DNA of 64,000 bases from Biomphalaria pfeifferi (lineage: Eukaryota): assembly GCA_030265305.1 (NCBI GenBank), contig JASAOG010000080.1:1810630-1874629 (forward strand), given 5' to 3'. Below the pieces are notes generated by a model. That model did no database searches, was not told the origin of the DNA, and saw only the letters and a program-made list of their open reading frames with translations. Of this stretch, positions 4,489-32,843 are shown piece by piece. Made by a program: the position numbers and the translations under genes. Positions within the stretch are counted from its first letter, which is position 1. Every line of letters starts with the position of its first letter.

Positions 4489-6118
4489 TCACTCCTTGTC
4501 GCTCTTATTATATACCTAGCATGGCATCATCAACACAGTACCAGAGGAAAAAAAAGTAGCGGAAGGGATAATTATTGATCAAGCAGGTACCTAATTAGGT
4601 CACATTCACTGTGTGGAGTGAGCAGGCTAGATGCCCGGGGTCACGCAGTTGTTTTTTTTTTGTTGAGTCAGCAAGATTAGGTAGGTCACAGTATATGGCC
4701 CTTTGTAAAGTTGAGGGTTTAGCAGAGAAGAGAACAATTAAATGAGGGAAAAGTGACACTAATCTGTCGGTCTTGAGTTGATTTAAAAAGAAATTGATAA
4801 TAAAATAAATAAAATTGAAGATAATATTATTTTTAAATGCAATAACTAAGAGGTGTTCGTTAGTGTACAGACATTGTTCATTAGTGTACAGACATTGTTC
4901 ATTAGTGTACAGAGCAGGGAATGGTGTTCGTTAATGTTAGTGCTGGACCTCATTGACCTGACCATCTTCAACATCATATTTAACTGTAACTATGCCTAGC
5001 GTAACAATGTAGCTATTTTTATTGACAAATGGATGACAAGTTTATAGATGTTTGTAGTTTTTTCCTAGGACTAACCATTACGGAGCTATAAAAATTGAAA
5101 CACAAAGATTGCGACAGCAGTGCTTAACTTGTTCGGAAGAGGGAAATTACATTATAAAAAAAAAAATATATAATAAATTATAATACAATACTGACAATAG
5201 CCTCTAAGTACTTTAAATATACTCTAGACCTAGTTAAACTAGTAGCAATATATAGATCAAATCATTCTAAGTAGAATCTATTCTAGTCAATTCTAATATA
5301 TTATCTAGATCGACTAGGACTAAAGTCTACTCTAGTAAAGAATACTGAGAATAGTAGTCTAGATTCTAGTACTAGATCTGGTTTAAGTATTATTATTATT
5401 ATAACTCTTACTAGACTCTTAGTCAACTTTGTGCATTTCATTGATATTTCAGATTTAAAGAAATTGTTGATTGTTTTAACTTCCTTATTGATGTAGTGAA
5501 AAATGTCTATTCAGATAAAAAAAGAGCCCACAGGATCTGGCATCTCTAGGTAAGAAAGCATTCTTTGGTTTTGCATTAATTAATTTGATTGTTAAATCAT
5601 ATTATGCTGAGATTATGGCAGATGTTTGGACTACGCTTTAGATTTAAAGAAATGAAAAAGAAATGAGATAGATATGATCATATTAATATCTTTTTAAAAA
5701 TTATTGTGGTGTCCAAACAGCTACTACTAATAATACTTGTACCCAACTAGAGCATTGATGAAAAAGGTTTGTTTATATAAATAAAATGTCTATAAAATAT
5801 GAAGAGTATGTGAATGTGAACAGCATTTTTTTATTGATAGATATTTAGTAATTAAAACTTTACTAGGGAATTTTTTTATTTATTGATAAAGAGCATTAAA
5901 TTTAATAATGAAATTTTCTTACAACTGGTACATATTGACCGTTGTCTGCTTTTAGATCTTCTACTCTAAATTTAGTAATGACAGAATGAACATCATTTAT
6001 CTTTTCTTTTGTGTGTGTGTGTTTTGCTTAAAGTGGATTGCTGGATATCAAAAAAGAGCCTGGCTCCAGCAGTCAAAATGCTTCCAATACCAGAGCAGTT
6101 TTAATCAGCAAAATTAAA

Positions 6119-6224
6119 ATGAACTTGATGCAAGCATGGAGAGAGAGGTGGACAGAAATACAGTGGGCCATTCAACTCAAGAAATTAATGGCAGTATATT
6201 GTACAGAAAATGTTGATGTTGCAG
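6119..6224 (+). CDS. MED24: MED24 exon 1: MNLMQAWRERWTEIQWAIQLKKLMAVYCTENVDVA(G)
   Basis: Aligns to human LQAWKERWSDYQWAINMKK. Donor GCAG|gtaatg. The ORF stays open upstream to 6034 (the track begins with TTG at 6038), so the true start is uncertain. Confidence 0.6.
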
Positions 6225-6750
6225 GTAATGTATTTTCTTGATGCTACTTAATTGTTGCAGAATTTTAAAGGTTATACAGTATGGTTAACTTTCTATTTTT
6301 AGTATTTGTAATAATATATTACTAAGATACTTAGCCCTTATTTGAACAATTCAAATTGTTTGCATAAGGAGGCTAAAAAGGGCTCATTGAAATTAATTTT
6401 CATAAATAATGTAAAGTGTGAAATATGAATTCATTTACAACTAAAAGCTTAAAGTGTGTAACATTGTATGGCAAGATGATTTTAAGTTAAGCTGTTTCTA
6501 AGGCCACGAGCGGGTTAGCCTGCATTATGCCCAAAAGCCCAAAATTCAAATATTTTTAATTTGGAAGGAAGGGCTATTCTGCTGCTTTTCAGCATGATAC
6601 ACTCAGTTTTGAATGTTCGTTATCACACATTGACCATAAAAAGTTAAAACTATTATTTTTTGTCTCTTTTTGGTGTTGTTTCTCATTCTCAATGTTTGTT
6701 TTTCATTAATTATTTAAATACAGTTGTATTTTATGTTTGTTCTTTGAAAG

Positions 6751-6833
6751 AAATTTTGATGCAACAAGCTCTTGTTGGGAGCAGTCCAAATTCACTGATC
6801 CTGTCATACCTAAAGCATGGTGTTTTATCACAG
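6751..6833 (+). CDS. MED24: MED24 exon 2: (E)ILMQQALVGSSPNSLILSYLKHGVLSQ
   Basis: Acceptor ctttgaaag|. Donor CAG|gtagat. Human LEQAMIGPSPNPLILSYLKYAISSQ. Confidence 0.85.
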
Positions 6834-7184
6834 GTAGATTTAACTAATTAGATTAATAAATATAAATATTTAAATAATAATAATAATAACAAGATTACAA
6901 AGACAGTTTGTGTGGAAACACAAACTCAAAATCAGCCCCCGAAGTGGTCCTCCCAGGCAGGCTTCAATATATTCAGAAACAACATCCAAATGAAATTATA
7001 TCAAAGACAAATGAGAGATAAGAATGGAGAAAGGTTAACAGATGTTGTTTAGTGCTCCAACGGTCCAGCAGATCAAAGGATAGGTGCAAATGAATGCAAA
7101 GTTAGATGTGAACCTGGCCTAACTAGTTCCCCTTTCAGACCTTGTGGTCTATAAGGGAGGTGATGTAAAGTTCATCTGTTTTTG

Positions 7185-7392
7185 TGGCCTACGATTAACG
7201 ACTGTGTCATGTAGCCAGCACAACGACCAACCGCCTTTACTTTTCCCCAACTAATGTCAGGTAACCATTAGAGCTGGGTGGACTCAGAGGCGCCCAAAGA
7301 TTCCGAAGTTGAAAATTCCAGGATTCGAACCCGGGACCCCCGGTTCGGAAGCCAATCGCTTTATCGCTCAGCTACCACACCTCCCCTGGCCT
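7185..7392 (-). mobile_element. tRNA-derived SINE, family B (copy 1), in MED24 intron 2
   Basis: Minus-strand tRNA-like head ggggaggtgtggtagctgagcg...gggttcgaatcctgg without a matching acceptor 3' half. Paralogue at 21165-21345. Confidence 0.6.
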
Positions 7393-8602
7393 AACTGAAG
7401 TGTTATAATTGATGTAATTATTTTGAAAAGGCTCAATCTCTTATTCGTATCCTCAAAAAAAAACATTTCCTCAAATTAAAAAGAATGTTCAAGAAAATGC
7501 AGTTTACAAGATTATTATTCATTTTAAATTTGGTCTAACTTATAATGCATACTAAATAGCTTTTTCTCTTTAAAAAAAAACTGCTTGCGTAAGTGAATTA
7601 AAAAATTAGATTTCGTTTTCAGAAAAAAAAAAGTAGCTGTTGCATCAGAACTTTGAATGGTCTAAAATATTGTGAAGTTGGATTTTCACTATCAATTCTA
7701 GTTTATGAGATCTAAACTGGACAGACATTTCACACAAAACTAAAAGGTCTTTTCCCGTTTCGGGGGCCGCTAATAATAACTAAACTTAGTTAACAATTAA
7801 TTTTTTAGATGGTATTAACTTTTACTGAAATTCATTTTTAAATGGCACATATTTTTTAGTATGTATTTAAAGCTTAAATATCACAACATTAACAAATTGG
7901 GCCATAACCATTTCATTAGCATACTAAATTATAGTCAATATCAGTAATTTTAAATTATGTTGTGGAAGTATAATTGTCAAAAAACTCATTTATTTTTTTG
8001 AAAATATCTCACTGTTTTCTATTCTTCTTTTGCTCAAATTTATTTCTTTTTTTCTCTTAATATTGCTAAAACCTTTCAAATGTCCCGAAAGATTGTTATA
8101 AAATGTAACACTATACTTTATGTAAAAATAATAGTTCAATAAAAAATATTGCTAATATTATTTATCAGTAACATTTGCCTTGCTAAATAGTTGTTAAAGA
8201 AATTTTAAGTTTTCTTTTTACTAATGAAAATAACATAAGACCTATATTGTCGCCACAAGTTGTTAAGAGGTCTTAGAGATACCCTTTGCCAGTGATTGGC
8301 AAAAAGTTTTGGCGGGCCATTATAGAAAATTTTGGAAATTTAACAAAGAAAAAATGCAGGATAACTTTTCAGTAAAAGAAATTTTTCTTTTAAATAATAT
8401 CAATGTTTTAACTTATATTAAAAACCTGTATTTTTTTCATTGTGAAAACAAAACATGTGTGGGCTGGATAAGACTTCTCAGCTGGCCGATTTGGCCAGCG
8501 GCCCGTAGTTTGCCCATCACTGCCCTAGTGGCTTAAAAAATTAATAAAAGAGTTCCATTAAATCGCTGTCAGTTTGCATTTTAATTTTGTACTTGTCCTC
8601 AG

Positions 8603-8715
8603 ATGATTCCATACCATACAGTTTTAAAGTATATCACAGAGTTTGATGATTTCTCAAGACCTTATTGTATCTTGGCGCTTCTACATCTGGCAGAAATGTT
8701 TGGTTCAAAAATAAG
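8603..8715 (+). CDS. MED24: MED24 exon 3: MIPYHTVLKYITEFDDFSRPYCILALLHLAEMFGSKI
   Basis: Acceptor tcctcag|. Donor AG|gtattt. Human MVSYSSVLTAISKFDDFSRDLCVQALLDIMDMF. Confidence 0.85.
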
Positions 8716-8935
8716 GTATTTTTTAATTGAAAACTTGATGGAAATTTTATATGCAAATACTTTTTTGAACTTGTGTCATTGGTTACACCAAATATTTATT
8801 TAATATTTAATACAAATGAGTGTTCAAATATGTAAAACATTTTATCTTGAGATTTTAGGCTGTGTTGAGTTTTTAATATTAACCAAACTTTTTAAAAAAA
8901 ATAAAGTATGTTCTAAATTGTTCTTTTATTTCAAG

Positions 8936-9029
8936 TTTAAGTCCATGTCAAGACTCTCCTTTGCAATTAGTTCGAACTATTTTGAGCCTGATACACTGGC
9001 AAGTGAAGGCTTTGTACGTCTGTCTCCAG
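8936..9029 (+). CDS. MED24: MED24 exon 4: SLSPCQDSPLQLVRTILSLIHWQVKALYVCLQ
   Basis: Acceptor tatttcaag|. Donor CAG|gtagga. Human CRALLSALHWLL. In phase with exon 3. Confidence 0.8.
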
Positions 9030-9196
9030 GTAGGAGGTCAAATAATTACTGAACTTTAGGTTAGAATGATTCTGTAACATTAATGAAATAATTTACTTTC
9101 TAAAAATAAATAAAAGCTTTTTTTTTTTTTTTAAAATTATATCTTTAATTTCTTTTATTTTGGGCTTTGACTATAGCAAACTAATGTTGATTTCAG

Positions 9197-9332
9197 CGAA
9201 TTCAGGAAAACAAAAGCACTGTGGCTGCAGAATATTTTGTAATTATGGATAATGCTAGTCGTGCCATTATTAATATTTTGGATCGCAAGGCTGTCAGGAG
9301 TCTCATGCAGATTGCCAAGACAGATAGTCCAG
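9197..9332 (+). CDS. MED24: MED24 exon 5: RIQENKSTVAAEYFVIMDNASRAIINILDRKAVRSLMQIAKTDSP
   Basis: Acceptor gatttcag|. Donor CCAG|gtaata. Confidence 0.8.
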
Positions 9333-9772
9333 GTAATACTAAAAATATGGATGGTATTTTTTGTTGTAGAAACTAATCAGCAATGTTGAAACCTTAAACT
9401 AAGCTGCTCCTCAGTGTAACGCAGATTTCTTACTTTAAATTACACTAGCATTAATTAATTAGCTATTATGTAACTTACTCTCATATGATTAACCAGTAAG
9501 CAGATACAAGGAGAGAACAGAAGAGTACACTTGCTAACATTTTTTTCCCACTAATGTGCAACAAAATGATAAGCAAATTAAACTGTATACCAAAATACAA
9601 CAACTTAATTATAGTGATAGTTTCATGGACCAATAAATTTTACATTTTGACACATTGATATTTAGTAAGTAATGAAGGATGCCTTGTGTTAGACATTAAA
9701 GATTTTTTTATATCTCCCTTTGTTAAAAATCAAAGTAGAAATGTTAATGAAATTTGTTTGTTATGTCTTTAG

Positions 9773-9896
9773 ATGCATACAGAGAGTTTGAGCAATGTGA
9801 GATGAATGTTGGCGGTACAATTAGTCAGTTGCCAAGTAACTCACAGCTGGGGGACACCCGGGAGAAAATAAACTCTGCCCTTTTACAGCTTTCAAA
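9773..9896 (+). CDS. MED24: MED24 exon 6: DAYREFEQCEMNVGGTISQLPSNSQLGDTREKINSALLQLS
   Basis: Acceptor gtctttag|. Donor AA|gtaaga. Phase-consistent. Confidence 0.8.
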
Positions 9897-11003
9897 GTAA
9901 GACCAAATTTATATATGTAGATAGATATAGTAAAACTTTTATCATGTGCTAAATGTGGATTTAAAAAATAAAGTACCAGGTAACCAGAAATAAAAAAGTT
10001 GTTCTTTGATCAGCAGATTAGCAACAGCTTCAACATTTGGCTAGCAAGGTGATCAGTTAGTTACGATTACTTTTCTTGGCTAATTTTTTAAATTACTAGG
10101 GTTCGTCTATACTAAATCAAAAAGCAATTTTGACAGAGAAAAATAACAAAAAACATATATTTCTACAGTTGATCAACATTGTACAAAAAACTACATAGTT
10201 CATCTATCGTGGTTTGATGATGACCGCTTTAGTCATCCAGGGGGGCTGAGGTTGCACTGGGGTTTTGTGCCTCCTCATGAGGCTGGTGAGGTCTGTGTGA
10301 GCCCAGAATGTTTGGCTGCTCACTGGGCAGGTTATTCCAGCTGGAACTAGTTTCTCTGAAACAGAAATAATTATATGATAAAAAAACAGAAAAAAAAGGA
10401 TACTATTGTTTTGATTTTTTACTTTTAAGGATATACTATAATTAACTCAATGTTTTTTTTTTCTCTTATGAAAACTGTTAATGTAAGAGTTCAGTTTATT
10501 TAGCCTTATGAGAGTTGCCATGAAACTGGCCAGAGAGATTAGGAAAACATAAGTTGTATGAAATGTTTGAGGTACCGGTATTCTAAACAAAAACAATTAG
10601 CATGGGCTGTAGTATTCCCTTTTTTTTCCTTTGTCTTCAAGTAATTACTTTCAGAAACTTAGGTCCTGTACTACAACGAAAGACTGGCTTAACTTAGTTT
10701 GTTGCATGTAACAATATATAGTGGAAAGACATGTTGGAATCATTTCAGTTGGACTGTTTGAATATTTTTAATTCATGCATAAATATCCAGTCATTTTATG
10801 TCAGAACAGGAAAAAAGAATATTGTTTTAGACATGAATGTTAAGTCAAATCTTTTTTATTAGTCTATAATGCTAAGTAACATTACTCTTGGTAGTTTATC
10901 AATTTTAGAAATTCACTACTATATGCGATCATAGATTTAATGATTAAACACCTGACTTGGTGCTGGTTTTATACATTATTAAATCATTATTTTTTGTCCA
11001 CAG

Positions 11004-11163
11004 ACTTAATGACATGGCACCAAGCTTGGAACCAGTTCTAGAAATCACCAACTCACCCATATGTCCAACAATAAATTCTCTGGTTGTTTTGGAGGCCATA
11101 CTCAACTCCAGTAGTGACATTCAGCCTTTTGTGGATCAAGTCTTGGTTGTCTCAAGACTCATG
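11004..11163 (+). CDS. MED24: MED24 exon 7: KLNDMAPSLEPVLEITNSPICPTINSLVVLEAILNSSSDIQPFVDQVLVVSRLM
   Basis: Acceptor ttgtccacag|. Donor ATG|gtaagc. Human ...LVEQLTMVKRM. Confidence 0.85.
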
Positions 11164-11879
11164 GTAAGCATGAAACAGTTCATATTTATTCTTGGACTGA
11201 GGCATTCTTCTATTGCAGGTGCTGTATTACTATTCAATACTAATAATCATAATCATCTAGCTGTTTACTCATTGACTGTTGTGCTTTTATATAATTAATT
11301 CATCATGCTACAATGATAACCACTGGTCATTCAGAGGGCTAAAGGCAGCTTTGTGCCTCCTCGTGTGACTGATGTGCCCAAACTTTTCAGATGTTCACTG
11401 GGCAAGCCATGCCAGCTAGAGCTTGTTCCCATAGCCTTTACTTTCTTCTGTTGTGCTTTTCTTCTTGCAAAGCTGTTTTCTTTTGCTCTTACTAATATAG
11501 GAAAGGCTAGACTCGTTTCAACATAGAATTTAAGAGCTAATTTTAGCTGTACTAGACATTACTCCAAAATAGGAGAGTGAACGAAGTCATTCTAGTTAAA
11601 AAAATATTATTGTTAAAGTTTAAAACTAGGCCACTTGGTCTTGCCAAATTTGCTTGTGATATTTTCTTATCATTTAAAAGATATTATCAAAGAAAATGGA
11701 TATTGCTGTAACCTATATTAAACACTGTATCTTCTAAAAATGAAGCTATTCTATGCTTTTGTGACAGAGACCTTTGCTCTAGCTGTAAATTAAATTAGTC
11801 CTAATTAATTGTTAATTTGGTTTTGAGTTTAACCTTGAACTGACATCATTCACAAACATGTGGTTCATATTCTCTTCAG

Positions 11880-12121
11880 AAACTGCCCATGCCACAGCTT
11901 TGTTTAGAAATATTCCGTGTTTGTTTCATGGGCTTTGTGGACACCAATGACTTTTCGGAAGATCTTCAGTGGGCCACATTTGCTTTCCTGAAGGTCCCGC
12001 ACATTCTGAATGCAATAAAGGAGAAGATGCCTGATTGGGACATGAGCTCCCATGTGGAGAGAGGGCTGGACATGTTACTGGAGTTCTCTCATCTGCTGGA
12101 TCAGACAGATATTAAACAAAA
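11880..12121 (+). CDS. MED24: MED24 exon 8: KLPMPQLCLEIFRVCFMGFVDTNDFSEDLQWATFAFLKVPHILNAIKEK...LLDQTDIKQ
   Basis: Acceptor tctcttcag|. Donor AA|gtaagg. Human PLFVLEIWKACFVGLIESPEGTEELKWTAFTFLKIPQVL. Confidence 0.9.
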
Positions 12122-12618
12122 GTAAGGATGTACCTACTTGATATCTCCTGATGGGAAAAAGTATTTGAACTTTATATTGGGAGGTTTGTACATGATGAGT
12201 TGATACAAATCTCCATACCTACCTCACATCAGTTAATAAAAGTAGTGGGACATTTTGATGGTGGCTACAATATACTATGCAGTTAGAATACTTACAACTT
12301 ATAATTAGTATCATCTTTGAGACTAAAAGAAATGCAGTTTGTAAAAAAAGGAAACATTTCATAAAAGAAAATTAATGAATTTTTATATTATTATTGAAAA
12401 AAAAAAAATTACATATTATTGATTGTGACTTTTTTTTTTTAAATCTGTAATTTTGAGATTAATTAAAAGACTGGTAGAGTTACTTGTTATGAAACATGCA
12501 TGTTTAAGAAAGCACACAGTGATTGTGAGCCAAGAGTTGGGGATTAGAAGCATGAAATATGTTAGGCTGGTTAATTAATATACAACTGTTATTATTGTTC
12601 ATTATTTTTCTTCAACAG

Positions 12619-12705
12619 TTTTGACATGCTGGTTCAGTTTATCACAGAACTTCAGAAAGCAAACATCATCACAGAATCACAGAAAACATCTCTCTGTATG
12701 AAAAG
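12619..12705 (+). CDS. MED24: MED24 exon 9: NFDMLVQFITELQKANIITESQKTSLCMK
   Basis: Acceptor cttcaacag|. Donor AG|gtattt. Human NFLLQECGKQGLLSEASVNNLMAKR. Confidence 0.85.
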
Positions 12706-13019
12706 GTATTTTAACTTACAAACAATCCATTTTCACTTGTTCAGCCTGTCAGGAGTAAGAATAAAAAATTATTTTTGAGAAATATTTTATTATGCTTGAA
12801 ATTTGTTAGTATTTCTTTTTGCTTGATGCTTTTTCTAGATGACATTCCTTCCACCATCTTAAGCTCTAGACACAATCGGATGTTGAAGGTACAATTACTC
12901 ACTCCATGTGTCTCACTGACTCCTCATGGCATATTTGATTGATATAACTGCATTTTGTTTTGTTACATTAAAAAAAATGCTTGAGACCAAATTATTTTCA
13001 ACATGTTTCATTTGTTTAG

Positions 13020-13128
13020 ATCTGAACAAAGAAGTCGTTTGCGCCCATCAGACATATCTGGTTCCAATGAGGGCAAAAATCTCAGCAGAGTGACACATGC
13101 AGAAGCCACGGTGACCAGCATTTTAAAG
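13020..13128 (+). CDS. MED24: MED24 exon 10: RSEQRSRLRPSDISGSNEGKNLSRVTHAEATVTSILK
   Basis: Acceptor tttgtttag|. Donor AAG|gtaatt. Human RAEPTVTNILK. Confidence 0.85.
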
Positions 13129-15844
13129 GTAATTAAAATGAATGAAATGTTTGTTATTATATTCACTTGACTCAACATCTGTTTGCCTTCCTCTTTTGTG
13201 CATAGGTCTTTGAAGTTGAACATGACTCCCAATACTTCTTTATATCGGTTCAACTATTCCATATCGTCATGACTCTTCTTCTTAAGAGGTTTCATTTAAA
13301 GCTATGTTTAGCCGGATTTTTATAGGTGAAGTCTAAGATATATATATATATTGGCTGTTAGTCTGGGCATAAAGTCTACATATGTTTTTTAAAGCAAATA
13401 GCTCAAATTTGATTTATTTCATCTTAAAAGGCAGCATCAAATCTAGTTATAATAATAAATACTTCCAGCTATGTATTTTTTAACAGTTCAATATTTCTCT
13501 AAAAAGGAAATATTACTGAAGAATTATAAGAAAATTTATTATTATTGTATCATTTCTCATTGCACAATTTTGAGAGTTTTCCTTCATTTTCCAGGACCTA
13601 AGCTTTGATTTAGGCCAATAACAACTAAAGTAATTTGAAAGTTCTTTCACTAAATCGAGCTTTTTTTTTTTTGTTTAATAAGCCTTGAAAAATCACTAGT
13701 CAAATTGGGGATTTGGAAGAAACTGCATTAATTTGGTTATTGGATTCAACTTAATGAAAAGCAACTGATTTTTTAAAGCCACAAAATGCATCCAGTAATT
13801 AGCTGTATTATTTGATGACTAATTTGTTCAAGTTTGTATTAGAAATATCAGAACATGCTTTTTTTTTTTGCGCTCTGATAGTTATGTGTTAGTACATTAG
13901 CAATCTCTGTAGGAGATAAACCTTGCCTGCTTACTACTTCTCCCTTGTTGACGATAGTATTTTTACTATAGTGGCTGTAATTCTCATGTAATACTTTTTT
14001 TTTTTACTTTCTTTACATGTTATCCTCCTAATATAGAATAATAATTAAAATGACCTTTTCTCATTTTATGTTCTTCGAGGCCTGCATCTGATTCGTAATG
14101 ATTTAAACTCTGGTACATTCGTCATCAAATCACTTCTTGTGTAGAGATGCATATCATTCTAATATCTCTCCATCTTTGCTCTTTATAATTCATCAGTGTG
14201 TCACTTCTTTAATGAACACATGCATTTTTTTTTTGCCATCAAGCTTTTGTGCTGTTCACATATCAGTAAGGCAATACCATCTCAAATTCAACCGTCTGCA
14301 CATGTGTGTTGCCTCCTTTCTCAAATGCTCTTTCAATACCACCTCTTGTGTCAATAATCTTCTTTTCCAGGGAAGTGCTACACTAGATAGGATGTTGAAG
14401 GTAAAACTACTCACTTCATCTGTCTCACTTGTTGTTTAGAAAAGTTTTGCTAGTATGGAGCTGTTTTTTATGTACTGACATAGTTTTGTTTATTGTTAGA
14501 CATGCAGGTTTATTTACAGATATATAAAAGTTTTTTCATTGCATATATTTAGTGTTAATTATTCAATATAGAATTCTTAATCCTCTCAGACCTTTTATTT
14601 TTTTTTTCTGTTTTGAATTGAACCTGCTTCACATCATTTCATGGAAGTATTATGTGGGCAGCATACTAGTGGAACTCATCCCAAATACTTTTTTTTTTTA
14701 CTAAATGATTTAAAACTCTTTTTCCTTTTTTTTCTTTTGCTAAACTAATTTAATATTTAACTGTTAAATTTTTTTTTTATTTTAGGGTATTTTTTATGTT
14801 TTATTATGATTATAAACCCTTCATATTTTTCTTTGCTGAAGAATACCTTGAGCTGTGTGACAGGACATCCTTTCAACTCTGTAAACATTTGAACAAAGAT
14901 GGCTCACTTATTTGTCTAATAATAGATTGTTAAAATCAGCTCATTGTGGTGAAATTTATTAGACAACTTGACATAAATTTGGTGCATAATTTACTTTTCA
15001 CTTGCCTTTGAAACTAGCTGATTTATTTGCCTAGCATCTGTTATAAATGCTACTCCATGGAAGATTGCCAAACACCTAAAGACAGTATTGAAACTTACCC
15101 ACATATCCATCAAAGAGATGAGACTAAAGCATATTAAGTGTACACACTACCATGACTTGCTATGAACAATTAAAGGGGAATTTAGAGTGGTATTTTTTTT
15201 AAACTTTACTTCATAATGCTAATGTATTTTGTACAATCTAAGGTGATACATACTTTTTTACATGTATCTCTGTGCGTTAACAAAACAAAAACAAACAAAA
15301 AACTTAATGTGAGCATTACATCATAAACAAAAATGTTTTAATGGTTATGACTTTTGTTGTTGTCTGTTGATCTGGTCACTTGCTATTTGTGCTACACTGA
15401 ATGTTGTTGTTGCTGTCTACTTTTGCAGTTTTGTTTCCAAAAGATTTGAATGTTTGAATCTAGTGTATCATTGTACTATATGGGGCTGAAACATAATAGT
15501 GTTTACTGATTCAATTTTGATTAATCTAACTCAGTAATACAAACCTTTTTAACTTCTTTTTTTGTGTTTCTGTAGTAGTTTTTTTTTTTATTGCATGATT
15601 GATTATCTGATTTTTATTTGATCTTTGCTCATTGTAATAAACCAAAGACCAGTTTAGATGTTCCAGTGAAGGTTGGCTAAATCTATTTGTGATTAATTGA
15701 TTCATGTTATGTAGTATTGTTTTTGGATTTTTTGTTTACTTGTATGTGTTGATGGCCCACTTTATGGCACATGTGTCCTGTTGAATTTGAGCTGTTGACT
15801 TGAAGTATTTCAATTATCTTAATGCTTATCTAAAATTTGATAGC

Positions 15845-15975: not shown

Positions 15976-16586
15976 TTTTGAGGTTATGGCACATAAAAAA
16001 ATCTTTTATTGTAATTATGTTTGATAATTGAATGTCAACACAGAAAAGAATACTTTACTTACTTTCAAACCAACAATTTAAAATTGTATCTTAAAAACAT
16101 GTTTTAGTATTATAGGACCGTTTTTAAATCTATCAAAACCTACCTTGGGGGTTCTTCATCGAATTACTATTTGTCTAACTAGAAATTGACTTTCCAATGA
16201 CAAGTCTATTTTGTGGATCATCACAATACATTTTGTGGACAATTCTTGTATGAGTTGTGTTTTTTTTATTTGTTTGCATTGTGTTTTGATTATGGAAATC
16301 CTCCCTTCTCATAAATACTATACAAATCTTTTCACATAAGTTTTATTGATTACAACAGGGAATTAATTTTGTTAACCTTTTTTTTTTCTACACATGTAAA
16401 AGAATTTCATATGTGATATTATTTACTGTTTGTTGAGATAATTGCCCAGCACCTTAAATTTTCTGGGTTTTTAGGGTAATAACAGTAGTCAGAATCAGAA
16501 TGGAAGTTGAGCATGCAGTGTTATTAGTACTCCATTATGTGCCTATTTTTTTGCCACTTATTAACTTGTATGTTGTTATTATTCAG

Positions 16587-16729
16587 TCGCTAGATTCAGA
16601 CCCACACAGAAACTCAGAGTCCATGATCAAGGTGCTGACCATCATGCTTCAGGGGCACAGCTTTGATATTCTTCGGTTGGCTGCTGCAAGCACAGGAAGG
16701 CTGCATGATTTTATGTCTAAACTTATCAG
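16587..16729 (+). CDS. MED24: MED24 exon 11: SLDSDPHRNSESMIKVLTIMLQGHSFDILRLAAASTGRLHDFMSKLI
   Basis: Acceptor ttattattcag|. Donor AG|gtagtt. Human GLLGVLGHMLSGKSLDLLLAAAAATGKLKSFARKFI. Confidence 0.85.
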
Positions 16730-16989
16730 GTAGTTATCCTATTTTTTAAACAGAAAATGTATTTTATAAAATACCTTAATAGATTAAATATCTTAAAATA
16801 TTTGTTGGGAAAGTTACAGGTAAAGGCTATAAGACTGTTGAGATACTTAAATTTGTACTTTTTTCAGTAGATGGCATTTTTCTATGTAAAGCTGATTTAA
16901 TTGAGAAATGAAGTTAGCCATTTCTGTAGCAATTGAAATTTTACAGGGTGGGGTCACTAGCCCCATGTCAAACCCTCCTTTGTTATCCA

Positions 16990-17450
16990 GGCTTCGATCG
17001 GCCTTGAATTGTGTATGTTTATAGACAGCAAACTTCTTAGGTTCATACAGAGAGAACTGAAACTGCATGTTGTTAATTTTTGATGTCAAATGAAGATAAT
17101 TCATTCTACCAAAGTCAGCTATAAAACAAGGAAGCTGAAAAGGGGAAATTGAAAACAAGGCTGTCCACATATAATAATTTCAAATCCATGGGCACCAGCT
17201 GGGAAGACGCTGTGTGGAAGTCATCTTTGACCTATCTCTGTTTAGAGAGCTTACCACCCTAAGCACCGAACAGTGCTGGAGGACCTAAGGTCTTAATCTA
17301 AAAAAAAAAACAGGAACATTCTAAAATACTTGCTGTCTCTTGAACATAGTACTCTCAGTTTGACATCCAAGAACTTTTCCATAATACTTCATTTCTATTT
17401 ACTTTGACGCTCTGAAGTCTAGGATTGTTCAATGAAAACTAAAAGATTGA
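16990..17450 (+). mobile_element. RTE-like LINE 3' end (ORF2 tail ...IHGHQLGRRCVEVIFDLSLFRELTTLSTEQCWRT* plus 3' UTR)
   Basis: Tail ends ...ggaggacctaag, like the copies at 32760 and 43830. Its 3' UTR forms the left arm of the inverted repeat. Confidence 0.55.
17281..17447 (+). repeat. Inverted repeat, left arm (about 165 bp, near-perfect)
   Basis: Reverse complement of 18001-18167 reproduces 17282-17447 almost base for base. Confidence 0.85.
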
Positions 17451-17643
17451 GAAGTAATGTATTGGATAATTTAACTTATATGTAAGGCAAATTCTAAACT
17501 TGGGATTATCCTATTTACAAGAGCACAGATCTAAGTTTGGTATTTTGACTATTTGAATAAAATGTTAGAAATTATAAATAAGTATTAATACATTTGCTAT
17601 ATATGAAATTGGGATTATGAATGTCTTTGTTTCTTGATGTAAG

Positions 17644-17761
17644 GATAAATGAACTCGCCTCACAGACAACTAGTGAATCTCTGAAGATCCCAAACAGAAA
17701 TCAACTTTTTGATGTCACATTTCTTATGATCATTAGCATATTGCAACAAAATGGACTAGGG
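17644..17761 (+). CDS. MED24: MED24 exon 12: RINELASQTTSESLKIPNRNQLFDVTFLMIISILQQNGLG
   Basis: Acceptor ttcttgatgtaag|. Donor GGG|gtaagt. Human SVRALLFDISFLMLCHVAQTYG. The exon sits between a 165-bp inverted repeat pair. Confidence 0.85.
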
Positions 17762-17839
17762 GTAAGTTTGGAATTTATTATTTACTGTAGTTGTATTTTT
17801 GAAGTTGGCAGTTATTTTTTTTTTAGGCAAGCAATCTTT

Positions 17840-17980
17840 AAAACTAAAGAACTTATAATAGATTTTAGAAAGAAAAAACAAACTATACGTGAACTGCAAA
17901 TAAACACTACATCTATAGAACAAGTAAAGGCATATAAATATCTAGGCGTTATCATCAACAACAAGCTTTCATGGTAAGAC
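17840..17980 (+). mobile_element. Reverse-transcriptase fragment (…IDFRKKKQTIRELQINTTSIEQVKAYKYLGVIINNKLSW)
   Basis: KYLGV...L.W is a non-LTR RT motif. Sits in MED24 intron 12. Confidence 0.5.
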
Positions 17981-18000
17981 CACCTTGGAACTCAATCTTT

Positions 18001-18167
18001 TAGTTTTCATTGAACAATCCTAGACTTCAGAGCGTCAAAGTAAATAGAAATGAAGTATTATGGAAAAGTTCTTGGATGTCAAACTGAGAGTACTATGTTC
18101 AAGAGACAGCAAGTATTTTAGAATGTTCCTGTTTTTTTTTTTTAGATTAAGACCTTAGGTCCTCTTC
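18001..18167 (-). repeat. Inverted repeat, right arm
   Basis: See 17281-17447. The arms bracket MED24 exon 12 and an RT fragment. Confidence 0.85.
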
Positions 18168-18466
18168 TTGTTTAGTTTAAAGCTATTGAGTTTGTATAGA
18201 AAAAAGAGACGCTGGGCACCAAGATACCTGTGTGTAGTCGCTGAATGAACTCTTTATGTTGTCTGTTGTATTTATGTGTATTTTTCTGTTGTGTTGTCTT
18301 TATATGAGAAACGAGTCCTTGTAATCACAACAAATTTCCGTAAGGATCAATAAAGCAGTCTTAGTCTTAGTCTTAACTCCATTGAGGTTAAATATTTTTG
18401 TATCAACAGTTAAAAATATGTTACTTTCACCATTGCAAGTGTATTTTAGACTTTTCCTTCTTTCAG

Positions 18467-18636
18467 ATTGCTTTATCTAACAAAGAAAATGAGTATGCCC
18501 TTGTGGTCCAGTGGGCCAAACGCTGGCTTCCAGAGGAAGGAAAATATAAAAATGTGGAGTTTATTGAGGAGCAGGACAAAGTAGATGCTATTTTAAACCT
18601 TATGCTCAGCAGTGCCGAAATTATTCCCTGTGGACA
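18467..18636 (+). CDS. MED24: MED24 exon 13: IALSNKENEYALVVQWAKRWLPEEGKYKNVEFIEEQDKVDAILNLMLSSAEIIPCG
   Basis: Acceptor ccttctttcag|. Donor CA|gtaagt. Human TWMQTCMPEEGKILNPD...SLVALLNNSSEMKLVQ. Confidence 0.85.
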
Positions 18637-18861: not shown

Positions 18862-18961
18862 AATTGCCAGCTGGAAGGAGATGATTATGTATTTGCCTTA
18901 CGCACTGCAAGAAATTCTCTTTGCTGTAGAGCACATGGCCCTCAATCTGGAAAAAGTCAAG
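18862..18961 (+). CDS. MED24: MED24 exon 14: QIASWKEMIMYLPYALQEILFAVEHMALNLEKVK
   Basis: Acceptor aactctttcag|. Donor AAG|gtaata. Human MKWHEACLSISAAILEILNAWENGVLAFESIQK. Confidence 0.85.
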
Positions 18962-19118
18962 GTAATAATAATAAAGTATTTAGATTAAAGGAGATTGCTG
19001 GCTTCTACTTAAGACTCAATGATAAAATCTTTCATTTTTGTTAACTGACAAACTTGACATTTCATCTAGAAGAATTAATTAGAATACGTTTTCATTACCC
19101 TGTTTCCAATCATTGCAG

Positions 19119-20190: not shown

Positions 20191-20331
20191 TATAAAAGCT
20201 ATCATTTAGTTTAGTTTTACTTGACGTTAACTTTTTTTGTAAAATGAAGACATCAATCAACCTCATTATATGCTATCTCCTAAGTTTTGATCAATCATTT
20301 AAAGATGCATGATTTTGATTTTCATACAAAG

Positions 20332-20569
20332 TAAACAACCCATTCAAGCCATCATTGACAACATCATCTATGACATACTTCCTGAGGGCCATCCCCAAAG
20401 ACCAATAAGACGCTACCAGCTGTCCAGCAAGAAGCTGACCAGTGAGATCATGAATGAGACCCTCAAAGATTCGTTCCATCGAGGCTGGCTGAGCATGGCT
20501 TCTTTACACACTCTGGAACAGCTGTTGGTCTTGAGAGGTCCTGACTGGTTCTGTGCTGAGATGGTGGAG
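20332..20569 (+). CDS. MED24: MED24 exon 16: TKQPIQAIIDNIIYDILPEGHPQRPIRRYQLSSKKLTSEIMNETLKDSFHRGWLSMASLHTLEQLLVLRGPDWFCAEMVE
   Basis: Acceptor ttcatacaaag|. Donor GAG|gttggt (weak). Human LEKGWVDSRSIHIFDTLLHMGGVYWFCNNLIKE. Confidence 0.8.
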
Positions 20570-21164
20570 GTTGGTTGCTCTTTTAATTTCTAGCAATTTT
20601 TTAAAATTGTTTTTAGATATCCGCTAGTTACTGAATCGGAGGGGTTTCGGATCTTCAAAGAATTTAACCGTATATGCTCAGGAAATTCTATTTATGATGT
20701 AATTAGATATTCTCTTAGAATTTCAAGGGGTATGAAATAAACAATAGATGAAAGAGAAAAATGGATATATAAAAATACAAAACAAATTTTGTTGTGTTTG
20801 TGTTTGTTATGTTATCATATTGCCTTGAGCCTGCATTATATTTGTTAACAGTGCTTTATAAATGAAATTATTATTATTATTTCAGCTTTTGCATACAAAA
20901 TTACAATTTAAGCCTACCTGCGTTCATAGTACAGTATGAATTAATTACATGAATTTATTTTGGGGTCGCATCGGAATACTGAGTTTGTCAGATTATCAAG
21001 CATCATTTGTATAGTATACGCTAGTTTGTTGGGATGTGAGCTAATTTAGGACTACAGCAGTCAGATCATTGTTATAAATTAAAATTTGCAGTGAACCCAT
21101 CATTTTTTTTATAGTTTTGATGATTGTTAACATTTATTTATTTTATGAAGGTGTCATGTTGCCA

Positions 21165-21345: not shown

Positions 21346-21781
21346 TTTTAGTTATCCTGTTTTTATATATTTAATTTATGACAAATTTTCTTATGATTAT
21401 ATTGTTTATATCATAACTCCTTTTCTTTCTGCCAACTTTTAGGTCAGATGGTTTTTTTTTAAACTTTTTATGCACAGTCTGTTCAAATTTCTTGTTTTAA
21501 ATACATTTCTTTTTTTTTTCTCATAAATTGTTTGGACATATTTTCGTTTTTCAAAGTTTGATAAATTATTTATAATGTTAGATTATTTTTTTAAAGATTA
21601 TTATATTATATATCATAGGCACTAAATAATTTATCATGTTTGTGGAATTTAGTGGTTATGATGATTATGAATCAATTGCATCCTTATCACTGCTGAGAAA
21701 AATTCTAAGCTAATTGTGACAAAAATAGTTAACTTTCTCATAAGTTATTTAATGACATATTTTTTTTGTAACTATTTCCAG

Positions 21782-22013
21782 CACTTGTTGAAACAGAACC
21801 ACACAGATGATGCCACTCAGTCTCTTAGTCTAGCCTTTGCTATCATGCACATGGACTTGGAACGCATGACCATCAGTCTGTTAAGGCGTGTGTTGCCCAG
21901 CCTACTGACGACACCACAGAACAGTCTACTGACTGACCCTAGAGGCTACTGTCTAGCCAAGCTTTGTGTCCTTAGCATCACAGCCACTCACATGTCCAAG
22001 ATAGGACAGAAAG
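21782..22013 (+). CDS. MED24: MED24 exon 17: HLLKQNHTDDATQSLSLAFAIMHMDLERMTISLLRRVLPSLLTTPQNSLLTDPRGYCLAKLCVLSITATHMSKIGQK
   Basis: Acceptor ctatttccag|. Donor G|gttgct. Human VLLGHILPGLLTDSSKWHSLMDPPGTALAKLAVWCALSSYSSHKGQ. Confidence 0.85.
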
Positions 22014-22138
22014 GTTGCTGAAGTTATCTTTTGTTTCTTTAGTTTGAATACAACTTTTAGATTACCCTAACCTGACAAAATTATTTATTTTTTGTAGAAT
22101 ATATTTTATAAATAAAACCTTTTTATTTTGTATTACAG

Positions 22139-23331: not shown

Positions 23332-24006
23332 GTAAGTTATCTTTCAGTTTGATCTCAAATGTTGGGAGATAGAATGTTGACCTTTTTGAAGTTATTCTCC
23401 CTTCTCAAAAAATACAAAGAATTACAAAACTATTTTTTTTTGTTTCAATTGTAGTAATATATAACAAACTATCATTTCTCCCAAGTAGAAAGTTTCTTAA
23501 GTTTTCGTGTCAAAAGTGTTCATGTTTATAATCAAATAATAAACCCAATCAAACCTATAAGGTCTCAGTTTTACATTTTCTATCTAAACATTCATGTGCA
23601 CGTGTTAGATTGAAATTGATGACCTTATATTTTTAATAATGCCATTTTCAAAATATATTTTACTAGCTTTTAGCCATTGGCTGTTTCCTATTACTAATTG
23701 GAAAAAAAACAAAAGGTTGAACACATGAACATGTTTATTTTTGCAAGTCTTTTTCAACATTTAGAATTTTCTTTAACTGTGTTACATGAAAACATTCTTT
23801 AACTGCTGGTGTGACATTTTATTTACTCAGTATAAGAAATCTGACATAAATTTATATTGACATTTTTTGTGTTCATTGGACCTAAACATTTTTTTTAGCC
23901 TTAACTTTAATCCAAATTTGTGACAATTTTTAACTTCAATCCAAATTTGATGACGACAAATAACAAATGGCTGAACTAAATTGAAATTTTTATATCACGC
24001 TTTCAG

Positions 24007-24156
24007 CTGAACCAAGTCATGCGAAGCTTGCCTGGTGTTTTCTCTGATGAACATATACTTCGAATCTGTGACCTCAGCACACTCTCTGGCAGAAAGATGG
24101 CTGCCAAAGCTATTTGTAACAATGCACAGATACCACAACTGAATCTCTTTGATTAA
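24007..24156 (+). CDS. MED24: MED24 exon 22 (last): LNQVMRSLPGVFSDEHILRICDLSTLSGRKMAAKAICNNAQIPQLNLFD*
   Basis: Acceptor cacgctttcag|. TAA stop at 24154-24156. Human LVKVSAMSSPKVVLAITDLSLPLGRQVAAKAIAAL. Confidence 0.85.
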   Translation: MNQVMRSLPGVFSDEHILRICDLSTLSGRKMAAKAICNNAQIPQLNLFD

Positions 24157-26020: not shown

Positions 26021-26693
26021 CTGGTAAAGAGAAACAAATTAGTTTTCAATCATCTAGAATCATCTTTTTCAATAACCAACTAAAACTCATTTTTCCAAAG
26101 CCAAAGGGCCACATCTCCCCCCCTTCCTTTCTAACTAGCTCTAGTTCTAATATCCTTATTAATTGAGCTCTTCTTAAAAAATTCTGACTCAAAATCAATT
26201 ATCTTATCAATTTTAGTCTTATTGTAAGCTTAAACTTGATTACATTTGGTTTATTGTTCAAAGTGAATTTTTAGAAATTTTTAAGGTAAATGTAAACACA
26301 TGGGGGCAGACACATGCAATGGCTAAATGTAGTTTAATTATGACTTTACATTCTGACCATTTTTTTGCATTTTATAAGGCAGTATCAAAAATATAAACAT
26401 GCATGGTGCCATTTTAAAAATTACTGACTAATCAATATGGCGATCTAGTGCAGTTAAGACTTGCAATAACTGACCAGAATTGTTTGTTTTGAAGATTTAC
26501 ACGATAATTTATTGATCAATGTATCAGAAATAAAAAGCAGAGGAAAAAGAAGAACCGCATGATAAGATAAGAATGACTAAAAAAAAAAAAAATTAAACTG
26601 AAAAGGCTGCAACAATTTAAGAAGACAATGGAGTAATTTTAATTTCAAGCATTTTGTACAAGTTGAGCCTGCTGTAAAAATAAATGTACCAAC

Positions 26694-26882
26694 CTGCATG
26701 TCAGGTCCAGCAGTGGCCATAGCAAGCAAAGTATTGGCACCAATGGCACCGACCATCTCTTTGAACTTTGTGATTTCAATAGTGGACATTTCATTGACTT
26801 TCTCCAGCTCCATCTTGTTTTGTTCAGAAACATACTTCAGTTCTGCTTCTCTGGCTCGAGTTAAGCGCTCCAATTCTGACTC
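26694..26882 (-). CDS. MVP: MVP exon 14: ESELERLTRAREAELKYVSEQNKMELEKVNEMSTIEITKFKEMVGAIGANTLLAMATAGPDMQ
   Basis: Acceptor ttgatcaccag|. Donor CAG|gttggt. Human [28 protein letters not shown]. Confidence 0.85.
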
Positions 26883-27132
26883 CTGGTGATCAATGTTTTT
26901 GTGAAAGTTATTTAAACTAAAATACCAATACATTATGTGGCATATATAATTATATACTGTAGTAACTTCTTAAAAAAATGATACTGTTATTCCAAAATGA
27001 TTAAATAGAATACAAAAAAATCATCTAAAATTTAACAAGCCATGTTTTGAAATTTCATTATTCCAAACTGCTAACAGTTTTAAATTGATTAATATTATTT
27101 TTCACATTATTTTGAGATATCTATTAACTTAC

Positions 27133-27376
27133 TGCTTCTATTTTGGTAGCCATAGATTTCAACCTGGCCTGCTCTACAGCCGCTTCACCCTCAATTCTGG
27201 CAGCTTCTGCACGACTCTGTGCCTCAGCCTTAGCCTGACCGGTGCTCTCTACTGCAGCACTGTTGGCTTGGAGTTCCAAAAGTTCTTTTCTGGCTTTCTC
27301 TGCCTCAGCCTCATCAGTAATCTTCTGGCGCTCAAGTCTGCCTTTAGCTTCCTGTTCAAGACGTTCAGCTTCATGT
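27133..27376 (-). CDS. MVP: MVP exon 13 (cap-helix coiled coil): [81 protein letters not shown]
   Basis: Acceptor tgttttag|. Donor GCA|gtaagt. Human [83 protein letters not shown]. Confidence 0.9.
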
Positions 27377-28027
27377 CTAAAACAAAAAATAAATTCACAT
27401 CAAAGTTGTAATACTTTAATGGAGGAGAGGGAGAGTCAATTTTACAATTTACTTTTGTTTTCTAGAATAGAATTTTAAATAAAGGTGGTTAGTCATTTTT
27501 ACTATTTGGTCAGCAGGTAAGTGCAACAACACAGGATACAATGCATTAAATTCCATGCATTTTTTCTTTCATGAAAAGCATAAAAACAAAAAAAGAATCA
27601 GCCAATTATGTCAACAAAAAAACAAATTCATTACAAAAAAAAACATGTTTAATATATTTTGTTTTATGCAATATAAATTTGAACAAAATGTTTTCCAAGT
27701 TAGCACGCCTAAAGGTAATAGTGTTAATACAAATCTGATATGGTCTTTTATTAAGACCAAAATGGCCACCTATAGCATCAAGGATGAAGGGGATCTAAAC
27801 AAATGGTATGAGGGTGGGGCCCAACAAGCATGTCACATAGCTTCTAGAATAGAAACTACATAAACTATTAAGAATTACATGAACTCAATTTCAGTTTCAT
27901 TTTAGTTTTGGCTAACAAGAAATCTAAAATGAAGGTCAGAATTTTAAACATTTCTTAACATTAAACATTGACTTCCAAATACCTGGCAGCATACACAAAA
28001 AAAAAAAAATGTTGGAAACATATGTAC

Positions 28028-28239
28028 CTTGCAGCAGCTTCCTGTGAGTTGGTGGTGATCTCAATAGCCAGCTGTACAGACTTCTGTAAAGCATCCCTTG
28101 TTCTCTGATCTACTGGCTCCACAGACTGGATGTCTATGCTGGTAATGACCAAATTGTTTTGAGGGAAGTGGAATTTATCTTTCACTTTACCATTGGCATC
28201 CAGGCCAAAAACAGAAGCTCTGATAATCTTGGCTGAATT
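28028..28239 (-). CDS. MVP: MVP exon 12: [70 protein letters not shown](R)
   Basis: Acceptor tgatttaaag|. Donor CAAG|gtacat. Human NSARIIRTAVFGF...[45 protein letters not shown]. Confidence 0.9.
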
Positions 28240-29012
28240 CTTTAAATCAAAAGATTAATGATATAGTAACTTGATATAATAGCGAGTGCTATTTAGCATC
28301 ACCCAAAATCCTTCACTTTAAAAAATGTCCAAAATGAAACTTTCACTGGTGAAAGTGTGTGTATCGTATTATCCAATTTTATGTGAATAGGTTAAGTCAG
28401 AATATATGAGTGACCAGAAGTTCATAATAGTTAATTGCATTTTTTTTAGTGTATTCCAAGCACCAACAATGAAAATAACTTGTATAGACAAATGGCAGTC
28501 TACAACTTTGCATCAGATGTGGCAAAATATGCAATTCACAAATGGATATGCATCCTTATTATTATTGTTGTGATGAAGTTAAGTGTATGACAATAACGAG
28601 TTCTTTTGGTGCTAAGGTTAGCAATAGTCACAGCAGGATCCAGACAGTCATGGCAAGAAACTATTTACAATAAACTATATAATATAAAAGCTGCAACAGT
28701 AATATCAATCTGGATTTTCTTGATTTCAAGTTACTGATGTAAAGATCATGTGCCAAGTTTGAGTAAACTATAGTATGAGTGTACAGCTCATTCAACATTT
28801 TGATCTGTGTGTTGAACTACTGTAAGACAAATCCCTTAAGGATAATAAAGATATATTATTGCTACAAGTCCCTTTTACTATTTATTTGATTTCAACATTT
28901 TAATTTTAAAAAAGCTAATAGAATTTTATAATACTTTCATTTCAGTTGTTAACCAAATAGCTAATATAATTTTTTAAATCTGTATCAATTGACCAAGCAA
29001 ATAAAACTCACT

Positions 29013-29154
29013 TTGTGAAAATCATCAAACTGAACCTGAGCTACTGCACCTCGCACTCTAGAAGCAATGGCTTTACATGAATCTCCAGTGAAGTCTGGGA
29101 CACTGAACAACTTAGCTGCTTCTGTTGGTGATCTGTCACCGCATTCAAAATGCC
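29013..29154 (-). CDS. MVP: MVP exon 11: (W)[47 protein letters not shown]
   Basis: Acceptor ttctatgtag|. Donor AAA|gtgagt. Human [48 protein letters not shown]. Confidence 0.9.
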
Positions 29155-29270
29155 TACATAGAATTATGTTTTGTGTCAAAATATGCTCCATAATATGAAG
29201 GGAAAAAATTGATAAAAAATTAGGCTTTTTCTTAAATAACTTATTAATACTGATTTCAATATTTCATACC

Positions 29271-29468
29271 AATTATAAGAAAGTTGAAGTGACAATCTGG
29301 CATGGTCAGCTGTCTCCACTACAATAATATCAGTACAAAAGTCTGGCCCCAACAAAAGGCACAAAGATTTGATCACATTGGGTTTCTTGGGTTTGCCACC
29401 AGACAAACTGAGTTGAGTAAACTGTTCATCAGGACCTAGCATAACTAATTCTGGTCCAAAAATAACTC
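29271..29468 (-). CDS. MVP: MVP exon 10: [65 protein letters not shown](W)
   Basis: Acceptor ccttttgcag|. Donor TTG|gtatga. Human [66 protein letters not shown]. Confidence 0.9.
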
Positions 29469-30045
29469 TGCAAAAGGAAAGGGGAAAATAAAAGAAATTT
29501 AATAATTAATCCGATAAACACACAAAATATAGACCAATTAGAATTCCTCTAATTGGCTTGCGTATTCTTCAAGGGTGCAAGGTGAGTGGAAGAACGAGGA
29601 TCTCAAAAATGACTTTTTCCTATAAATTTAACTGTTAATGTATATCTTTGGGAACAAATACTAGCTATTTGGAAAAGCGCTGGTTTGATCATTATAATTT
29701 TTTAAAATTATCAACTTAAAATTAAATTTGGTCTAGAGATCTATATTTTCAACACAGGTCAGTGGAAATTCCTGCATATATGCAGTAGAAAAATAAAGAC
29801 ATTCAGAACATTTTGTACACTTGTGTAGAAATTATTAGCTGAACCGCAAGAATTAATTTGTGACACTGTTCTTTTTGGGGAACTCTGGAATAAGTCTCAT
29901 TTTCATCTTTCTGGCAAGCATGTGCTACAAACATGTTACAAGGAACTCTGATATTCACAGCTCTATGACAAGTTCAGGCCTGATCATACAGCATAGACAC
30001 AAAACAACAGCCAAGTGAATTTTCACTAGACAACATTCAGCTTAC

Positions 30046-30275
30046 CTGGCTTTCTTTTCTTTGTAGTCATAAATTTGAACTGCTGCATTGTGGGGTACTC
30101 TGTATGATACTACTCTTGTTTTGTCACGAACTTTTGGGCTTCCTTCACTTTTTCTTTCACTTCTCTCTGCTACAGGATCTATGGAGAGCAGGGCTTCAAC
30201 TGTTGGTGGCAATTCTTTAGCCCAGAGCTCTTCATCTTGATTAATCATATATGTTTCTCCTTGAATGGCCCTGAC
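30046..30275 (-). CDS. MVP: MVP exon 9: [76 protein letters not shown](R)
   Basis: Acceptor cttatag|. Donor CCAG|gtaagc. Human [27 protein letters not shown]...[27 protein letters not shown]. Confidence 0.9.
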
Positions 30276-32775: not shown

Positions 32776-32843
32776 ATTTGAAATATTCTACAACTGCCAC
32801 ACTAATAATAGACAAATTCTGCTGCTCTATTCCAATCATTTAC

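Follow-up and report, generated by a model that had tools for sequence, protein, structure and literature searches.

The 64-kb window (the whole stretch of DNA analysed here) is AT-rich, with 32.6% G+C, and carries the gene for MED24 on its + strand. The Tara ocean-metagenome contigs L001 and L002 carry a MED24 relative. Translated, they gave collinear matches on the + strand of the window at 6032-6223, 6741-6836, 8600-8785, 8934-9029, 9191-9328, 9766-9897, 10984-11181, 11874-12122, 13018-13131, 16584-16730, and 17645-17767. Pfam Med24_N matches further exons of the gene at 18870-18985, 20303-20590, 21671-22018, and 23980-24153. The exon under study, at the last of the collinear matches, would be approximately coding exon 12, as 10 exon matches lie upstream of it and a gap at residues 385 to 412 of the relative may hide one more. 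Protein searches with exon 12 and with a 208-aa concatenate of exons returned one match each, the MED24 fragments P0001 (from Tara ocean-metagenome contigs) and P0002 (from an ENA contig). Exact-product look-ups in the indexed assemblies with four open reading frames of the window, namely the spacer frame, an arm frame, and frames of 221 and 113 aa, gave no match.

Exon 12 is bounded by an acceptor AG at 17642-17643 and a donor GTAAGT at 17762-17767, and its boundaries agree with the exon boundaries of the Tara relative. It matches positions 482 to 525 of Med24_N (E = 4.5e-5), and its protein sequence is 71 to 74% identical to that of the relative's exon. The length given in the first-pass annotation, 118 nt, is correct and consists of one codon-completing base plus 39 codons. 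Since this is not a multiple of 3, skipping of exon 12 would frameshift MED24. Introns 11 and 12 are 913 and 705 nt long in the window. The relative has introns at the same two positions, of ~450 and ~325 nt; these contain no inverted repeat and have no intron sequence in common with the window. Hence, the Tara relatives are too distant to represent the state immediately preceding the duplication that we propose.

Two side observations concern the genes of the window. The first ~463 to 487 residues of MED24 lie in one unbroken reading frame in L001 (198-1589) and L002 (165-1628); the same stretch in the window (6032-13131) is split by at least nine introns, and introns 11 and 12 are present in both. 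Such a difference suggests that MED24 lost or gained introns on a large scale between fairly close relatives (60 to 75% protein identity). Minus-strand open reading frames at 26577-26933, 33850-34173, and 34681-35346, which we take to be like exons of major vault protein, define a candidate gene (26577-35346, minus strand) that would run convergent with MED24.

Table 1. Features of the MED24 inverted repeat and of the LINE copies discussed in the text (positions refer to the window)
Feature	Position	Length (nt)	Strand	Evidence or content
MED24 exon 11	16584-16730		+	tblastn to the exon of the Tara relative, 73% identity, E = 1e-20; P0002, 76% identity; donor GT 16731-16732
Decayed RTE-type LINE 3′ end, intron 11	17149-17310		+	C-terminal coding remnant; ORF stop TAA 17286-17288; 11-nt tail GGTCTTAATCT; A11 17300-17310
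Left arm of inverted repeat	17279-17451	173	+	Arm self-alignment, BLAST
MED24 exon 12, within spacer	17644-17761	118	+	Pfam Med24_N; P0001, 74% identity; tblastn and blastn to L001-L003
Non-RTE LINE fragment, end of RT domain	17834-17986		+	Profile positions 89-139
Right arm of inverted repeat	17991-18164	174	-	Inverted copy of 17279-17451, with T12 instead of A11
Short piece probably of the non-RTE LINE	18164-18217		-	AQRLFFLYKLNSFKLNKK; profile positions 147-164; abuts outer end of right arm
MED24 exon 13 (homology-supported part)	18467-18571		+	tblastn to L001 3063-3167, 51% identity, E = 7e-12; acceptor AG 18465-18466
RTE-type copy 2 (comparator)	32604-32770		+	Intact 52-codon C-terminus, stop codon, (TAAGTC)2 tail
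RTE-type copy 3 (comparator)	43743-43838		+	C-terminus, stop codon, short tail

Exon 12 is enclosed by an inverted repeat (Table 1). A near-perfect inverted repeat with a spacer of ~550 bp had been reported here at first pass; it is real and slightly longer than described, and the spacer measures 539 nt (17452-17990), giving a total unit of 886 bp. The two arms are 100% complementary (BLAST E = 5e-85) except for one extra homopolymer base, the sole mismatch being a run of 11 A residues at 17300-17310 against 12 T residues at 18132-18143. The spacer contains exon 12, identified as MED24 by its match to Med24_N, and a LINE reverse transcriptase (RT) fragment (17834-17986; E = 4e-25), in agreement with the earlier description. 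The exon-flanking geometry also holds: complementary arms are present in both introns, the left arm ending 192 nt before the exon 12 acceptor and the right arm starting 229 nt past the donor.

At each of the four arm ends, homology between the arms breaks off sharply. When the flanks on the inner and outer sides were aligned, both directly and as reverse complements, all scores stayed at shuffle level and gave no indication of homology past the arm ends or of an older, larger inverted duplication. BLAST found no third copy of the arm in the 64-kb window, and the window contains no other inverted repeat of at least 50 nt with >78% identity and spacing within 10 kb. Stretches resembling the T run, at 17793-17823 and 18441-18463, are similar to the arm as pyrimidine tracts or low-complexity sequence only (E = 0.05 to 0.3).

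Long, perfect terminal inverted repeats are what would be seen if the whole 886-bp unit were a DNA transposon or a foldback element. We rejected this reading and give it almost no credence. The unit is not flanked by a target-site duplication (the flanks read ...GTGCTG and TTCTTG...), and no other copy of it is present in the window. Moreover, its interior is a conserved, in-register host exon with the intron positions of the relative, and its left arm runs on into LINE coding sequence that lies outside the unit.

That LINE sequence belongs to a decayed element in intron 11. Translation of its remnant yields MGTSWEDAV and, in a different frame, SLFRELTTLSTEQCWRT*, which indicates at least one frameshift and one stop within the last ~45 codons. 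Two other copies of the same type lie in the window. Copy 2, which is coding to 32762, reads ARWEEAS...SLWRQLAAQCAEQHGRT*, with the stop at the same position as in the left remnant; the coding end of copy 3 is at 43743-43829. The DNA of the left remnant at 17244-17293 is 80% identical to that of copy 2 at 32718-32766. The RTE reading frame and its stop cross the outer boundary of the left arm, as 17235-17288 aligns with copy 2. We take the motif …GxPRITW…W.EA…W…* to be typical of the RTE clade, and the designation RTE-like rests on this motif together with the very short, repeat-like 3′-untranslated region (UTR). RTE elements have extremely short, repeat-like 3′ UTRs (PMC2887409). A scan of metagenomes for the conserved RTE tail motif gave a single chance match, in an unrelated contig.

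Several LINE families are abundant in the window. A LINE remnant with another C-terminus of the GRPRMRW... type lies at 54072-54208 (+ strand), and a 116-aa open reading frame at 1783-2133 (minus strand) resembles the cysteine-rich C-terminal region of another non-LTR element. RTE-type copy 3 lies shortly after a satellite array at 42477-43260. This array and a second one at 54661-55080 have a 111-nt unit with 29- and 57-nt subunits containing GGGGTTT...AAACCCC palindromes; the two are related in inverted orientation, with 66 to 80% identity, and lie ~11.5 kb apart. At 55300-58196, a 967-bp unit, first seen as evenly spaced weak matches, is repeated in tandem in at least three copies that are 99.8 to 100% identical.

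Comparison of the three RTE-type copies bears on how much of the arm is LINE sequence. After the stop codon, the left copy continues with GGTCTTAATCT and the A11 run, and the other two continue with GTCTAAGTCAG and GTCAGTAAG. Beyond ~10 to 20 nt past the stop, no similarity among the three copies exceeds that of shuffled sequences. For the downstream DNA of the left copy and copy 2, the alignment score was 46 (shuffle mean, 34; maximum, 59); scores at least equal to the observed ones were reached by 84 of 300 shuffles for the left copy and copy 3 and by 126 of 300 for copies 2 and 3. The outer ~32 nt of the arm consist of the last 7 coding nt, the TAA stop, the 11-nt tail, and the A run. Since the three tails lose mutual similarity ~10 to 20 nt after the stop, the inner 141 nt (17311-17451) look like private, non-LINE flank of the left copy, and the RTE-derived part of the arm would be limited to the outer ~32 nt. 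The comparison draws on two comparator copies whose last 50 nt match the left copy at ~80% identity, and these could belong to a subfamily with a tail shorter than that of the left copy. The first-pass annotation had taken the arms to be 3′ UTR sequence of an RTE-like LINE. The link to RTE stands for the outer end, but the arm interior does not appear to come from the LINE.

The right arm carries the junction between LINE tail and flank that is seen at the left copy, together with no more of the LINE than its last 7 coding nt, stop, and tail. RTE sequence was not found past 18164, outside the right arm. An independent insertion would not bring with it the flank of a neighboring copy. The presence of the left flank without a LINE body therefore argues that the right arm was copied from the left locus. 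The earlier claim that one LINE is present in two opposite orientations is thus not supported, and the RT fragment in the spacer comes from another LINE family, as described below. The left arm, in turn, runs without a break into the LINE sequence upstream of it, so that the source of the copy is retained.

One could still read the arms, much as the first-pass annotation did, as two insertions, in opposite orientations, of a single mobile unit, either an RTE subfamily with a 3′ UTR of ~165 nt or a nonautonomous derivative. The left copy would then be the longer one, the right copy would be 5′ truncated 7 nt before the stop, and both 3′ ends would face the exon; perfect identity would reflect very recent activity or gene conversion between the close arms. 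Both arms share an inner end point, as the 3′ terminus of an element would give, and template switching has been described as a way to homogenize the arms of inverted repeats (PMC8604942). There is also a weak direct repeat (16756-16778 versus 17456-17478, 18 of 23 matches) where the target-site duplication of the left copy is expected, but its E value of 2.4 is at chance level. We consider two insertions unlikely. The other two RTE-type tails are unlike the arm interior, and unlike each other, beyond ~10 to 20 nt past the stop, and the interior lacks a third copy in the 64 kb. An independent young insertion should not match perfectly a locus whose left coding part is decayed. Direct reading reveals no target-site duplication around the right arm, and the flipped LINE piece beside that arm (see below) is left unexplained. 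For a pair of independent RTE insertions in particular, the arms should not share flank; they have 141 nt in common past the tail and A run, and target-site duplications appear to be absent. We concluded that the arms are not such a pair, as far as their sequence indicates.

The right arm lies beside the RT fragment in intron 12. This fragment has 552 relatives at E ≤ 1e-3 and matches a profile built from 16 of its relatives (E = 4e-25). Full-length relatives have an endonuclease domain, RVT_1, and PF09004, and their C-termini do not have the RTE-type motif; hence, the fragment comes from a different LINE family. A protein search with the fragment gave one match, to a short RT-like fragment. 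Pfam searches with the short LINE pieces gave no matches, even for this strong RT fragment.

On the outer side of the right arm, an 18-residue minus-strand piece covers profile positions directly after those of the + strand fragment (Table 1). When the intron was searched by tblastn with several relatives, the piece was found at E values of 1e-4 to 3e-3. Its profile score is 7 to 8 bits, a score that 4 of 1,000 shuffles of the 301-nt region reach anywhere in the profile. We regard it as probable, not certain, that the piece belongs to the same non-RTE LINE as 17834-17986. At the right arm, this LINE jumps from profile position 139 on the + strand to positions 164 to 147 on the minus strand; positions 140 to 146 and those beyond 164 were not detected there. 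The right arm may thus mark a breakpoint in the host LINE fragment, of which one part would have been lost and another inverted, the inverted part being the tentatively assigned second piece. Twin priming was ruled out as the cause of the opposed pieces, because the two point toward each other: they are tail to tail (convergent), whereas twin priming gives head-to-head (divergent) pieces.

No continuation of the non-RTE LINE was detected on the + strand after 18218, where profile scores stayed below the shuffle 95th percentile. A C-terminal FKAIEF motif with a tail at 18320-18372 was considered as such a continuation and dropped, as there was no significant profile support from 18218 on. The sequence at 18320-18372 (+ strand) reads ...TTTCCGTAAGGATCAATAAAGCAG(TCTTAG)3. 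This resembles what we take to be the 3′ end of an L2/CR1-type LINE with a hexamer microsatellite tail; if the likeness is real, the non-RTE LINE of intron 12 would end there.

Taken together, we favor a young, lineage-specific inverted segmental duplication within MED24 over two LINE insertions as the origin of the repeat, with a probability of roughly 0.5. The starting state would have been an intron 11 that contained an old, decayed, 5′-truncated RTE-type LINE. A 173-nt segment comprising 7 coding nt, the stop, the tail, the A run, and 141 nt of intron would then have been copied, as its reverse complement, into intron 12, from a source ~540 to 710 nt upstream of the landing site. That site would lie inside a fragment of a different, non-RTE LINE. 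In the same or a linked event, part of the non-RTE LINE would have been deleted and a neighboring piece of ~54 nt flipped. The left LINE remnant is decayed and the arms are without substitutions, which indicates that the duplication (or homogenization) is much younger than the LINE insertion.

The route would presumably have been a template switch during replication or the repair of a double-strand break with copied filler DNA, with no second retrotransposition. Direct reading of the inner junction (17990/17991) showed no microhomology: the A before the copy does not pair with the A at 17452, beside the end of the source. This junction is therefore more in line with blunt end joining than with a template switch mediated by microhomology. 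Cases in which template switching produced a reverse complement of nearby sequence, and with it a perfect stem, are documented (PMC5453318, PMC7954356, and PMC8794818).

The right arm could instead be an artifact, either an assembly or amplification chimera (e.g., an inverted template switch during whole-genome amplification) or a misjoin in a repeat-rich intron. The arms differ solely in the length of a homopolymer, a difference typical of sequencing error and not of evolution. Amplification chimeras contain an inverted copy of nearby sequence, an adjacent flipped piece, and a deletion, and the MED24 structure resembles them in this combination. Elsewhere in the assembly, the 967-bp tandem copies, at 99.8 to 100% identity, show that very recent or collapsed-looking repeats occur. 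However, a single chimeric molecule is rarely fixed in a consensus assembly, the exons and splice sites around the inverted repeat are intact and in order, and there is no gap or N run beside the arm junctions. We consider an artifact improbable, and more so than two insertions.

With exon 12 located between inverted copies, a duplex in the pre-mRNA is possible. The first-pass annotation had proposed RNA folding of the region. Folding of 17270-18175 gave one continuous two-arm stem whose loop contains exon 12 together with its acceptor and donor; the energy was -388.5 kcal/mol, compared with -181 ± 8 kcal/mol for shuffled sequences (z = -26). By this computed fold, MED24 pre-mRNA could form a 173-bp duplex with a 539-nt loop around exon 12, and such a structure would presumably form in the cell. 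The expected consequences would be some skipping of exon 12, giving a frameshifted and probably decayed transcript; use of the duplex as a substrate for double-stranded-RNA enzymes, by editing or dicing; and back-splicing into a 118-nt circle, which would be inefficient at most. In the DNA itself, exon 12 would be inverted if the two arms recombined. A spacer of 539 nt makes hairpin or cruciform instability unlikely.

Two prerequisites for circular RNA are present: complementary arms far longer than 30 to 40 nt in both flanking introns, and a canonical acceptor and donor at exon 12. Complementary intronic repeats promote back-splicing, and 30 to 40 nt of complementarity is enough (PMC4201285). 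In minigenes, tested in human cells with one vector, exons of ≤400 nt circularize poorly (PMC4201285). An exon of 118 nt is well under this length, which weakens the circular-RNA reading. Intronic inverted repeats also form edited double-stranded RNA and shift a neighboring exon from constitutive to alternative (PMC2533698). We would rank the consequences, from most to least expected, as mostly normal splicing, skipping of exon 12 in a fraction of transcripts (frameshifted and probably unstable), editing or dicing, and a rare 118-nt circle. Because MED24 is otherwise an intact gene, the net effect is most likely near-neutral. We think it quite improbable that a one-step duplication created a regulatory hairpin in this essential Mediator subunit gene that measurably diverts MED24 pre-mRNA to a frameshifted, skipped isoform, a 118-nt circle, or diced small RNAs. 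If this were true, a datable local template switch, and not paired transposon insertions, would have founded a circular-RNA or hairpin-RNA locus.

If the proposed local duplication is right, one local inverted copy, made in a single step and with no pair of transposon insertions, is enough to give an exon complementary flanking introns. Perfect arms with a known source would also make the locus a clean case for the effect of a duplex on a short, frame-breaking exon of an essential gene. Otherwise, the repeat is an ordinary feature of a transposon-rich intron. A caution for annotation is that what looks like a pair of oppositely oriented LINE tails can be a segmental copy.

The reference system for the left copy is the 5′-truncated RTE-clade LINE copy with a short simple-repeat 3′ UTR (Malik and Eickbush 1998, cited in PMC2887409; Tay et al. 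2010, PMC2887409). Like these, the left copy has a coding remnant and a stop, followed by a tail of ~11 nt similar to the copy 2 hexamer repeats and by an A run. Unlike an independent RTE insertion, the right arm holds the last 7 coding nt and the tail plus the private flank of the left copy.

Short-range template switches mostly involve tens of bases, not 173 nt. As we understand such events, both the 173-nt tract and the jump of ~540 to 710 nt are larger than usual, and the MED24 case adds a flipped 54-nt piece and a deletion. It shares with the template-switch mutations described earlier (Loytynoja and Goldman 2017, PMC5453318; Walker et al. 2021, PMC7954356; Monttinen and Loytynoja 2022, PMC8794818) a nearby reverse-complement copy, a source that is kept, and a perfect stem. 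The repeat thus appears to have the core features of an inverted duplication mediated by template switching or repair; disruption of the acceptor site depends on the weakly matching second LINE piece.

Inverted Alu pairs at ZKSCAN1, HIPK3, and EPHB4 (Liang and Wilusz 2014, PMC4201285) likewise make flanking introns complementary, and in MED24 the arms lie within ~200 nt of the splice sites of a canonical exon. In contrast to the Alu pairs that give circles, the MED24 arms are a one-off local copy and do not belong to an abundant repeat family, the enclosed exon measures just 118 nt, and back-splicing is a prediction. The Alu pairs edited by ADAR (Lev-Maor et al. 2008, PMC2533698) are, like the MED24 arms, inverted intronic repeats <2 kb apart, with double-stranded RNA predicted near an exon and skipping predicted. 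However, the Alus tested there shared one upstream intron of a primate gene, and the distance from one Alu to the exon was 24 nt; the MED24 arms lie in different introns, ~200 nt from the exon, in a nonprimate, where editing and skipping are predictions. The origin is best read as a known kind of event that produced a known kind of exon-flanking repeat, and the MED24 locus is another instance of these.
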